A program made the position numbers and the translations under genes. The notes under the pieces were generated by a model, which did no database searches, was not told the DNA's origin, and saw nothing but the letters and a program-made list of their open reading frames with translations. From the NCBI GenBank assembly GCA_003990765.1, contig RBNJ01000166.1, forward strand, positions 1 through 38,204: 38,204 nucleotides of DNA, given 5' to 3'. Source of the stretch: Jimgerdemannia flammicorona. Lineage: Eukaryota. Positions 1,175-5,966 of the stretch are shown here, piece after piece. The first letter of the stretch is position 1. Each line of letters starts with the position of its first letter.

Positions 1175-2954
1175 ATGTCCTCTTACTTTGGCTACAAACT
1201 GGGCTCCAGCATTCTTATATGTATATTTATTCTGCCACTGATAATCCACTCTTCTGTACTACACCAGTTTCCTCTGGAATATTTTTGTGAAATAGAGGAA
1301 AATTTTATCCCTATTGACTTTAACTCAGATGAATTGCTGACTGCTTCAAGACAGGAGTTGGAGGCTGCCTTGTCAACACCAGCTATTCTTCCATTAAGTA
1401 GAGTTATCCCAGGACTTGATTTTGAAAAACCTTTGAAATGTGATATTTTGGAAAAGTTTTTGGGCTCACTAGCTTATGTAATTGATACAAAATGAGGAAT
1501 TAAAGTACTTCAGGAGGCATTTAGAAGTCCTTATCATGAGGGATTGGCTGAATTGTAACATTTTCATTTTCCTGAGAGTCCTCCTTTGATGGGTTTGAAG
1601 ATATATAATTGAATTTTTTAATATCTTCTTGCTATTTGAGTAAGTTGCTCAGAATTCTGAGTATTTTTTTTTTTTTTTTTTTAAGAAAGAAATCTCACCA
1701 AACTTAGATTACTAAAAAAATTATTTTGCTTTTTAGAAGGTAAAGAAGGATCAATGCAAAGTACAATTGGTAGATTTTTTGGATCAGTAATGACAATATT
1801 AGGAAGATCAACAAAACCTCAAGACCAAATTTATCCAGACTCAATTCCATATTCCAAGTCTTTATGATTTTGAAATATTGAAAATTCCAAGGCTTGATCT
1901 TCCAGTGGGGCAGACAACAATACTTTATATGCAGAATTTGGAGGAAGTTGGACATCAGTATTCTATTAAGTCTTCAGAAAAAGGACATCAAAATCAATTT
2001 CAAACTGTAACATTTTTGGAGTCTTCTATCTTATCAGCTGGCATCCTAAATTCACATCACAATTATATTATTCTGAATGCTGATATAGAGGAAGTTGTTC
2101 TAGTAGTTTAGAGAAGAATATTGAGAGATCAAGCAAGCCAAGTTTTGATGGATATTTGTGAGGAGGCCTTCAAAGTTTGAAAAGCTAGATTATATGACAA
2201 AGCTTGAGTAGAGACTGGATCTTACATGTCAGCTGACTATACTTTGATCTATACTGGTGGAATACATTATTGTATTGTATCTCTCAACAATTTTAAACCA
2301 CAAATTGGACAAGATAAATGAGAGGAATATGAAATAGCTATTATGGAGATAGCTTTGCTTCTCTTTAATACTTTTTGTCAGATGCGGTGGCAAATTCTCC
2401 TACTTTACTCAATTTTTGAACAATTCAATGCTCCTTATTACCTATCTCCTGAAGAAATTTTAGCATCCTCAGCATTTTTGGTATCCTCAACTTCAGTATC
2501 AGAATTCTCAACTTTGCCATCAGCATCTACTTCAGCTTTGAAATTATCTGGAATTGATGGAGGTCAGATGAATCAGAGTCAATCTAGGATATATTTTAGA
2601 CTTGATGGATTTTAGTTTGAGCAAAATATAGTGAAAGTCAGTAACATATTTTTTGGATGATATGCAAGTTCTCTTACTTACACTGATCAAGACATAACAC
2701 CTATTTTACTCTATATTATGAAATATAAAGGACAATATACTTCAAAATCTGGAGGCTTGTTCTATAATCTGACTTATGACATTAGAGTTCTGCTAGAATC
2801 AAATATGATGATGGTATTTCACTTAAATCAACCATATGGTTCAACAGTTATTAGAGATAAAGAAGTTCTAAATAGCTTATCAATGAGTATTTTTCATAGA
2901 ACTTTGAAAGCTGTGAGCTATTATAACAAATTTTTTGGAAATTTGGGAGAGTAA
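1175..2954 (+). pseudogene. Intron-containing degraded gene; C-terminus resembles a TET/JBP-family 2OG-Fe(II) dioxygenase
   Basis: Phase-0 intron 1640-1736 (GTAAGT...ACTAA...TTTTAG) joins the 1175 frame to one frame running to 2954. C-terminus: YASSLT[Y>H]TDQD...SGGLFYNLTYDIRVLLESNMMMVFHLNQP[Y>H]GST. Reverting TAC>CAC and TAT>CAT restores HxD and the distal His. Family call is from motif memory only. Confidence 0.6.
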
Positions 2955-2989
2955 AAAAATCTGTAGATATTTTGAATATTTGGTTATTG

Positions 2990-5530
2990 TTTTTTATATT
3001 GTATCTTAAGACTTCATATACATATATGCCCAGATTGTCTCAGTATTCAGTGTACACCTCTTTGGAGTAATGAGGTCTACCATACCTAAAAACACCTGCT
3101 TGACAGGAGCACTGGAGGCAGGAATCACCAGGTAGTCCCAAGCTATACCATACAGGCTGGGGAAGTCCATTTGATGTAGCTGCACACTCCAGTAGGTATA
3201 GTGGTGGTTATATTAGTGGGTTAAATTGGCCCAACACTCATCTGACAACTCACCTTCCACTAGTTGAGCACCTCTATGCCCTCCAGCAGGATCATGCAAT
3301 TGCTGGTGAGATAAATGATAAGTTCATCTATTGGTGGCAGCTCTTTCACTGATGGCTCACTCTTCCTCTTTCTGCTGAAGTAAATGTGGGACAAGAGGAA
3401 TCTCTCAGTATATTCATCTGAACTTTGGCCAGAACCTTGCGGTGGTGCATAGTTTTTCTGGTACACTTTAATTATGGTCTGCTTGGTTCTCTCAATGAAG
3501 TGTTGCTCACAGCCCTGATCTTTATAGTATTATGGCTTTAAGCATAGGACCAGTACTGTTTAAAGAAAAGGAAAGTGAGTTTTTGTAGAGGTTCCTCTGT
3601 TTTGGAAGAGGCAACGGCCACATTCTGACATTGATATACCTGTACTAATTGAGTATATGGCAGATCTATTTGGGAGTAATATTTTCTGAGCTTGCTTAGA
3701 GCAACCTCCATGGCATCTCTCTGATCTAGGCTCAACTATAAATTACCACAACCCTCTAGCCTGTCCTCAAGCTTGTCCTCTAGCTGATCAATCAGAAGGT
3801 TGTATACTGGTATTGCTGAGCTTATTGTCAGGGTCACTTGTTTGACTATATCCTTCGTACAATCATCAAAATACTAGTAGTTATATGTGGTGAGGTATTG
3901 CATTATATAGAGGTAGACAAAATGAGTATGGAGGCAGACAAAATAAGTGTAGAGTCAGAGCAATTACCACTTACTTCCAAAACTCTGACAATATTCCTAA
4001 GTATATCCCACTTGCTTTCACCTAGAGCCTTAGCCCATATTTTCTTATTAGTAGCTACCATTGAATCTATTGACTTTTTTTGTTTTTTTTAAAAATAAAT
4101 CTTCAATTATCCAAAACAAGTTACTTCAGCCAACTAAAGAAAAAAAGAATACATACTATAGCAAACTCTAGCACATGCTGAATCATTGTAAATGTTGAGT
4201 TCCAACATATACAGACATCCAATATAAGCTCTTTCGGGGCTAAACTGATTGCCCTACACTGTGCAGTGAATTTGTCTCATCATTGTGGAGATGATCAGAC
4301 TGATACAACCAGTTTGTGCAGCTTGGAAATTATACTCAGGACTTCTCCTCTCTTAGATGTTTTGTCTACATGTATAAGATAGTCCTGAACAGTGAGGTTC
4401 AGTATATGGGCCTGGCATTACACATAATAGCTTTCTGTACTGAAGACCATATTTTTCTGTTTGAGGCTAGCTGCTAAAACTTAGAAAAATGTTGAGTTAT
4501 TTGTAGCATTATCTGTATAATGGCCAAAATCTATACTTGAAATATTTGGTTGTCAAATTTATACAAAAATAAATAACCAATAAAATCTAGTTTGTTTTAG
4601 GACCTCCTTCAAAATGCCAATCTAATGGCAAGCCTCTCTTTTTTACCTTAGTTGTGATCCCAAGCTCTCAGATACAACTAATAAAAGCATCTGTGATGTT
4701 GTCTCTAGAATGAGGGCCAGCAAGTTTGATGAAGTCAAGGGTGAGAGATTTAAGCTACCAATTGAGATCAATCTAATAACTAATAATGCTCAGAAATGAA
4801 ATTGTATTGGAGAATGTCTATGTATTGATCATAAATAAAATTTTGCCTGCTGAATTCTGCTTATTGAATGTGAGGTTAAATTGGTGAGCTCTTTTATATA
4901 ATTCAGCTTGCAAAGATCACAGTGCTGTTCTTATTTTATCTGAAGTGTCTGGCGGAGATTGTTATGCTCCTTCCTATAGGCCTTCAGGACATCTTTGTGA
5001 ATAGTATTAGTACTTGGCAAATATAAATTATACTTAAGGAGACCAAAGATGCTATGCAATTAATTACTCTCAATGGTTGTAAATGGCTGGTCTGTGCACA
5101 CAATCTAGTGAATGAGCTGATTTTGAAATTCTGCTGAAGAGTATGGTTAAATATTTTTGATTAAATGGCATTGTTGGTACAGAAATGGTCAGGCAATCAG
5201 ACAAATGTACCCACTACAGCTTAGATATCAATTTTATTTATCTCTGTGTTCTTTTTGATTTTGTCAGAGTACTTGTCTTTTATATGTTGATATATGTTTG
5301 AAGTCATACCACCAAGCATTTTGAACTTCTGGCTGGTACAGTTTATGGGAATAGATGAAACAATATCATGTGTGTGTCAAAACAAAAAGTGTCAATAGGT
5401 GCATCTTAATTTTTTATCTACAATAATTACAAACAACATCATCTTTTATCTTAGCACAATATTGTCAGATTTTAGAGTGAGGATTATATGGAAGGTGTGA
5501 AACTATCAGAGATGTTTGACTTGAAGCATC
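2990..5530 (-). pseudogene. hAT (Ac-like) transposase, degraded
   Basis: Motifs on the - strand: BED finger (HSKI*QYC..VVCNYC), DQPFTTIES, LLTLDFIKLAGPH, TDNATNN, CQAHILNLTVQD, LDVCICWNST (LDVxTRWNST), SAIPVYNLLID, and dimerization domain FPSLYGIAWDYLVIPASSAPVKQVF..LITPKR. Confidence 0.93.
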
Positions 5531-5672
5531 ATTAGTACTGTGAACTGTTGAAGACTGATCTATCAATATGTATGTTTGTGTGTTTGTATGTGCATATGTA
5601 TATATATATATGTATTGTATATATGTATATATATATTATGTTATGAATATATCTGGTATATGAGTCATATAG

Positions 5673-5960
5673 AGGATTTGGATTAAAGGATTCAGTTGAA
5701 GGATTTGGATGAGGATTCAGATTGAAGGATTCAAATTGGAGGATTTGGATTAAGTAATTCAGATTGAGTAATTTGAATTGAGTAATTCAAATTGAGTGAT
5801 TCAGATTGGGGTAATTTGGATGGATGATTCAGATGGGACAATTCAGATGGGGTGATTTGGATTAATCTGAGTTGATTCAGATGGCTTCAGATTTGAGATT
5901 CAGATCAAACTATCATATAATGAATCAAATCCAGATTTGATTCAAATTGACTCATTTGGA
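5673..5960. repeat. hAT subterminal short-repeat array (GGATTTGGATT/GATTCAGATTG variants)
   Basis: Many degenerate copies of a GATTC/GATTT-G core directly inside the putative TIR, typical of transposase-binding subterminal repeats. Confidence 0.7.
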
Positions 5961-5966
5961 GCACTA

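Follow-up and report, generated by a model that had tools for sequence, protein, structure and literature searches.

We analyzed a stretch of 38,204 nucleotides (nts) from Jimgerdemannia flammicorona (contig RBNJ01000166.1, positions 1 to 38,204, forward strand; hereafter the window), whose left part holds the remains of a hAT-superfamily DNA transposon and, tail-to-tail with its transposase, a pseudogene resembling the genes of TET/JBP dioxygenases. The overall statement, which we favor by a narrow preference, is that this region is the right-hand part of a hAT together with a carried, convergent gene for a dioxygenase that is similar to the PE type of TET/JBP-like domains, has HxD at its iron site, and is dead by decay. 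The pseudogene spans 1163-2954 on the + strand and contains 10 premature stops, one in the upstream exon and nine in 1737-2951. Its parts are the following.

1163 to 1554, + strand: upstream exon of the TET/JBP-like pseudogene, with one premature TGA at 1493, recognized by BLASTP to the metagenome locus L001
1555 to 1736, + strand: putative intron of the TET/JBP-like pseudogene, with GT at 1555, a T-rich tract and AG at 1735-1736, and with an equivalent intron in L001
1737 to 2954, + strand: main exon of the probable TET/JBP-like (PE-related, HxD) dioxygenase pseudogene, with nine premature stops, ending with the stop codon TAA at 2952-2954

A HMMER (phmmer) search of 1.84 billion representative proteins detected six relatives of the pseudogene. 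The best of them, P0003, is an intact protein of 374 amino acids (aa) with 51% identity over nearly the whole length (E = 1.9e-101), and when it was placed on the window by tblastn, residues 3-370 of the 374 covered 1761-2942 in one frame with the same C-terminus (E = 2e-116), as the single copy of the gene in the window. The others were four C-terminal fragments (P0004 to P0007) and one N-terminal fragment (P0008). In a word-indexed protein search, the window copy (P0001) had no match, P0003 had P0024 (259 aa) as its sole match, which was added to the relatives, and a profile query had P0006 as its sole match. Profile scans revealed two loci in metagenome contigs, L001 and L002, and none in genome contigs or in viral contigs. 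Both contigs are soil-type, AT-rich and CpG-normal, with short GTAAGT introns and the gene present; the gene of L001 lies in about five exons, and in L002 stops interrupt it. P0007 is a shortened protein whose sequence departs from that of its 128-aa relatives. The gene family looks multi-copy, with decayed copies elsewhere (L002 and P0007).

The first-pass annotation of this DNA, made from the letters alone, had described an intron-bearing gene ending at 2954, tail-to-tail with the hAT transposase, and both the TAA at this position and the exon homology with L001 bear it out. Frame 1163-1554 aligned with the translated upstream exon of L001 (139-396) at 13 of 34 identical residues (E = 3e-05 in a single BLASTP comparison). 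Because this exon belongs to the same gene in L001, the pseudogene is regarded as intron-bearing, with one likely intron at 1555-1736 to judge from the sequence. The two exon frames are about 180 bp apart, and the exon phases fit imperfectly in the decayed copy. The true start is uncertain, and the candidate ATG at 1175 is doubtful as such, because it lies within a further copy of ATGTCCTCT, the word that opens about three tandem units of ~110 bp (ATGTCCTCT...GAGGAGGACCTCTT...) found at 780-1175, immediately upstream of the first visible exon.

The decay reached both His positions of the iron site. The intact relatives read THVD, THTD or VHVD and then HG[ST] 52 residues later, which constitutes an HxD...H triad, and every family row with a residue at the first site has HxD except P0004 and P0007, which have HVN, and the window copy. 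The window copy reads Y-T-D at 2679-2687, with the Tyr codon TAC at 2679, and Tyr again at the distal site (2835-2837, codon TAT), where the alignment has His in all nine other rows at the HxD site and in all eight at the distal site. The earlier annotation had interpreted the two positions as His codons hit by C>T and had named Tyr in intact paralogs beforehand as the refutation of this interpretation; the relatives carry His, in its favor. At 26 columns the other rows, three or more in number, are unanimous and the window differs, by a single C>T or G>A in 20 cases, by another single change in 4 and by two changes in 2. When the threshold was loosened to two or more rows, the same three classes contained 22, 7 and 12 of 41 columns, many of the 12 two-change columns having a consensus set by only two near-identical rows. 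Four of the six internal stops of frame 1803-2954, which is P0001, are TGA opposite Arg in P0003. The copy is, by the signature of these changes, a pseudogene that was killed by deamination-type transitions, and because it is dead it has no present function. The massive CpG decay of which the first-pass annotation spoke is evident across 1-28 kb, where the observed/expected ratio of CpG is 0.00-0.13 with TG and CA in excess.

Downstream of the pseudogene lie the transposase and the right end of the hAT, for which the terminal inverted repeat (TIR) and the long terminal repeat (LTR) interrupted by the insertion serve as landmarks. These features, and a fragment of a long interspersed nuclear element (LINE) upstream of the gene, are as follows.

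2955 to 3005, no strand: spacer between the convergent stop codons, 51 bp, without TIR or subterminal repeat
3006 to 5400, - strand: decayed hAT transposase (copy A), split over at least four frame segments and rich in stops; ~5400 is an approximate upper limit
5673 to 5862, no strand: subterminal short-repeat array of the hAT right end, with units such as GATTCAGAT and GATTTGGAT (Tandem Repeats Finder)
5958 to 5966, - strand: right TIR of the hAT, TAGTGCTCC read inward, an exact match, abutting the LTR 27 nt from the LTR tip
5967 to 5974, no strand: candidate target-site duplication CCATTATG, the first LTR bases past the TIR, from alignment with four other LTR copies
392 to 784, - strand: 5′-truncated LINE fragment, with poly(A) read as poly(T) at 391-427, 77% identical, inverted, to 37940-38204

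The transposase was identified by PF05699 Dimer_Tnp_hAT at 3006-3212 on the - strand (E = 6.6e-08; score 32.7 bits, cut-off 21.4). Its stop codon is at 3006-3008 on the same strand, and further blocks in shifted frames extend up to ~4417. Three read-through frames had no Pfam match to an RNase-H-like catalytic core, nor to anything else beyond the hAT C-terminal domain; by eye they contain C.AH.LNL and W-N-S blocks, which we take to be hAT transposase blocks. The gap to the gene, put at ~40 bp earlier, measures 51 bp between the stop codons, and the statement that no TIR lies in it was correct. Subterminal motifs cluster only at 5673-5950, with 17 forward matches in that 500-bp bin, and no inverted cluster was found anywhere in the window. 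The junction with the LTR, of which the window has four other copies, is 27 nt inside the LTR tip (TGTAAGAGGG..., also written TGTAAGAGGGTTAC...), and the LTR bases matched by CCATTATG appear as CCGTTACA in a copy with less decay. As the first-pass annotation had supposed, the other hAT end and the missing tip are outside the window: + strand TAGTGCTCC with one mismatch or fewer does not occur in 1-5957, so there is no left TIR within the window, and the four occurrences of the LTR tip include none in 1-5966. The LINE fragment, which has the 15-bp duplication CCAAAAATGTCCTCT at its two edges (377-391 and 785-799), is on these signs a later insertion that landed upstream of the gene; its left and right flanks are for that reason continuous.

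A second hAT copy, diverged from copy A, occupies 12445-14234 and 20963-21934; in a sensitive self-comparison, 12439-14169 and 20965-21886 were colinear with 3015-5334 at 56-60% nucleotide identity. It was cut by a Gypsy insertion with 500-bp LTRs (14235-20962), by an LTR element whose end at 12444 falls one to two codons short of the transposase stop, and by another LTR element at the equivalent of ~5385. The two truncating elements belong to one kind of LTR element and are oppositely oriented. No TET-like gene accompanies this copy within the window. The possibility that 1-3005 is a displaced left part of the second hAT was considered and rejected, since both copies would have to be broken at one and the same codon.

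The published domains to which the gene is most similar are the PE-type TET/JBP-like domains, described from fungal DNA transposons of Pezizales and Agaricales in the sections of Kojima 2025 (PMC12730594) used here. The window family was compared by eye, without a statistic, with the nine PE sequences of Table S1 of that paper. Common to both are the collinear blocks [DK].NYI..D..T.EIV, SAG and LPR[ML]D, then [YF]EF.QG followed after exactly 18 residues by H.[DE], and finally GG.F[FY]..[DS]YG[IF].[IV]...EN, with HG[ST][ST] exactly 27 residues after GG. Moreover, the Pezizales PE sequences and the window family are alike in having no conserved Arg right after the distal His. The two differ at the iron site, where the window family has HxD and the stated hallmark of the PE type is HxE (PMC12730594, section 3.4). 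The PE type itself was connected to TET by HHpred weakly only, with CMD1 as the best match at E 1.4 (section 3.2.3), and AlphaFold-database models link it to the structures of CMD1, NgTET and CcTET with e-values <1e-5 in the same source. The absence of Pfam matches in the window family fits this weak HHpred link.

A protein-language-model atlas gave similar indications. The nearest neighbors of P0003 were basidiomycete clusters with PF20515 (2OG-FeII_Oxy_6, "Tet-like") at a score of 0.96, and when the atlas was limited to named clusters, all 30 matches carried either PF20515 (6) or PF12851 Tet_JBP (24), with best scores of 0.95-0.96; shuffled proteins reached 0.95 or more once in 100. The ten best matches all fall in one family or clan, which is also the case for a third of shuffled proteins. 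Taking the motif blocks, the HxD...H triad and these neighbors together, we consider it likely that the gene is TET/JBP-like, as a PE-related lineage with HxD.

Several results weigh against this assignment. Searches by hmmscan (Pfam) up to E 10 gave no match for the window copy, P0003, P0004, P0005, P0006 or P0008, leaving the Pfam Tet_JBP check that the first-pass annotation had called for negative; neither the PF12851 Tet_JBP nor the PF20515 2OG-FeII_Oxy_6 profile recognized the window copy or these five relatives. The gene and its relatives had no match in PDB sequence and PDB profile searches, nor did the family in PHROGs, and AlphaFold2 returned no confident fold from alignments of 6 and 14 rows (mean predicted local distance difference test scores of 34.1 and 36.6). 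The atlas neighbors are a lead only, because a recognition value of 2142 is too low for a high score to count as strong evidence, and the PE comparison was by eye. The position after the distal His that we take, from TET2 and NgTet1, to hold the 2-oxoglutarate-binding Arg, and at which PU-type sequences show an Arg in R.G.S.Q, has H, N or T in the family alignment, and the caution expressed earlier about this residue was right; an Arg is present 21-22 residues past the distal His in five of six lineages. The same observations speak for the alternative that the gene is no TET/JBP relative, its HxD...H coming from another metal-binding protein or from none and the likeness being superficial. Six collinear motif blocks with anchor spacing identical to that of PE-type domains, themselves tied to known TET-related structures (PMC12730594), argue against such an accident, as does a top atlas score that shuffled proteins seldom approach, and we regard this alternative as distinctly unlikely. 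Of the original claim of a TET/JBP domain, then, the triad in the relatives, the atlas leads and the motif match remain in support, while the fold and a Pfam or PDB match did not materialize.

Whether the gene was cargo of the hAT is judged from its position. The gene and the transposase both keep their native C-termini, 51 bp apart, and left of the transposase there is neither a TIR nor a subterminal repeat nor an LTR tip (1-5957 was searched for TIR and tip). The length of published TET-carrying hATs and the multi-copy look of the gene family also speak for carriage, and we hold it moderately probable that the TET-like gene was carried by the hAT. Against this, only one hAT end is in the window and no copy with both genes between two TIRs was found, for which reason the cargo status is unproven, and the second hAT copy is uninformative on the sequence past the transposase because it is cut at its transposase stop. 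The earlier placement of the gene inside the element gains from the missing left TIR and LTR tip before the gene, and with one element end it is plausible only. Nor does L001 assist: there is no transposase in the 1.7 kb after its gene, and a likeness of its end, which has a GATTTGA-rich array and a terminal stretch resembling the hAT end of the window, was dropped as not significant, since shuffled sequences scored as high 440 times in 1000 with the 25-mer and 14 times in 1000 with the 37-mer. The gene may instead belong to another mobile element, such as a Helitron, IS3EU or EnSpm, and have become adjacent by nesting or deletion. The window is indeed a dense nest, with two LTR elements, a dUTPase-bearing Gypsy, LINE fragments and a second hAT cut twice, no left hAT end is visible, and the carriers named for PE-type genes in the consulted sections of PMC12730594 are non-hAT elements such as Helitron, IS3EU and EnSpm. 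However, as both C-termini are complete, a breakpoint would need to lie in the short spacer; open reading frames (ORFs) of at least 75 aa within 1-1500 contain neither Helitron, Rep or helicase domains nor another transposase; and the hAT subterminal repeats expected of a truncated hAT end are lacking left of the transposase. We consider this origin unlikely, and still less credit, to the point of being very improbable, is given to a former host gene that turned into a pseudogene and merely lies between transposons. The introns and the upstream exon conserved in L001 would suit a host gene, but in CpG depletion and load of transitions the sequence matches the transposons around it, its relatives elsewhere are several near-identical and decayed copies, and the published relatives of the nearest type, as given in the parts of PMC12730594 used here, are all transposon-borne.

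If the gene was indeed hAT cargo, 1-5966 would hold 5.5 kb or more from the right side of a single hAT-superfamily transposon, old and dead, which would have carried a second, intron-bearing gene on the + strand, convergent with the transposase on the - strand, their stops 51 bp apart. This gene would have encoded a distant TET/JBP-like Fe(II) dioxygenase of a lineage nearest to the PE type, with HxD replacing HxE. An enzyme made by live copies would bind Fe(II) via the HxD...H triad and, by analogy with characterized TET enzymes, might oxidize 5-methylcytosine on the DNA of the element itself, countering methylation-based silencing and C-to-T decay. The hAT would first have entered a 1.5-kb LTR at 27 nt from its tip, then received the LINE fragment, and then been inactivated by deamination-type transitions, which left the gene with 10 premature stops and with Tyr for both Fe-binding His, and the transposase in fragments.

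A wider reading, which we regard as tentative and rather doubtful, is that the proteins resembling P0003 are a fourth branch of the TET/JBP-like enzymes found on transposons, a sister of the PE type that has HxD, escapes Pfam and is carried by hATs, in at least two very different fungal-like genomes (the CpG-depleted window and the AT-rich, CpG-normal L001/L002). Such enzymes may use another co-substrate or make another cytosine modification, and not be classical TET, because the 2-oxoglutarate Arg is missing and CMD1 is the best HHpred match of the PE type in the sections of PMC12730594 used. Transposon-borne demethylase-like enzymes represent a counter-defense against genome methylation and were until 2025 tied to few element families. 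The general phenomenon is already in print and the window copy is dead; what the locus adds is a probable pairing of a hAT with the poorly characterized PE-like branch, in an orientation opposite to that of the published hAT cases. The family is tiny, with six members among the 1.84 billion representatives, and is missed by standard profiles, which makes it useful for fungal repeat annotation, and the intact P0003 is the enzyme of choice for biochemistry.

The remainder of the window consists of a dense nest of transposons, in which LTR elements have protease, zinc-knuckle, dUTPase, reverse transcriptase (RT) and integrase domains and a LINE has endonuclease and RT domains. The dUTPase-bearing Gypsy, together with the relatives of the TET-like gene, points to a fungal source of the DNA. 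In the LTR retrotransposon at 14235-20962, the LTRs are 89% identical and a dUTPase domain (16890-17258, E = 1.6e-24) is located just upstream of the RT. Two LTR element copies, 5940-12444 and 21935-28273, lie in opposite orientations; their LTRs of ~1.5 kb are unusually long, the internal part is only ~3.4 kb, and the protease match is opposite to the assumed forward strand of the LTR. Inside the right LTR of an LTR element, a full-length U6 small nuclear RNA-like sequence was detected at 11497-11607 (Rfam RF00026, 77.8 bits). It is absent from the left LTR and is flanked by a 16-bp direct duplication AAGCTATTTATAGATT, and from its sequence context it looks like a retro-inserted U6 copy. The region 28300-31700 is GC-rich (50-57% GC) and far less decayed than its flanks (CpG observed/expected 0.15-0.4), with long ORFs on either strand, for example 29294-30307 (338 aa), without Pfam match. 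In the metagenome locus L001, a further intron-bearing ORF set was found at 2320-3260, on the same strand and downstream of the TET-like gene, without Pfam match or counterpart in the window.

We finally compared the locus with published systems. A full-text literature search on fungal TET/JBP genes with hAT transposases found PMC12730594 alone. In the sections used here, this paper (Kojima 2025, December 2025) describes 20 TET-carrying hAT families in Puccinia species, which are rust fungi, so that the link between hAT and TET is not new and the statement in the first-pass annotation that no such link was known is outdated; what would be new, if the cargo status holds, is the combination of a hAT with a PE-like gene. 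The Puccinia hAT7 elements resemble the window element in that they are hATs with a second gene for a TET/JBP-type dioxygenase, are large (Table S1 cells for the TET-carrying hATs contain 8,091-9,810 characters) and reside in genomes with C-to-T decay at CG sites. They differ in the gene, which is of the PU type (GG.MW.IGWRK, R.G.S.Q) and not PE-like as in the window; PU-type sequences have the general layout in common with the window family, whereas the family-specific motifs differ. The arrangement is different as well, since in at least three of the families the gene precedes the transposase and is read in the same direction, in contrast to the downstream, convergent gene of the window. Their termini are CAACGGTGG or CAGCGATGG compared with TAGTGCTCC in the window, and their target-site duplications are 7 bp, a length that is undecided between 7 and 8 bp from the one end in the window (PMC12730594).

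Compared with CcTET, NgTET1, human TET2 and CMD1, the window family has no detectable sequence match, and the Arg presumed to bind 2-oxoglutarate is not conserved in it. CMD1 uses vitamin C instead of 2-oxoglutarate. The likeness with these four enzymes is in the HxD...H iron triad, in which the spacing from HxD to His is about 50 residues in the known enzymes and 52 residues in the relatives of the window gene.

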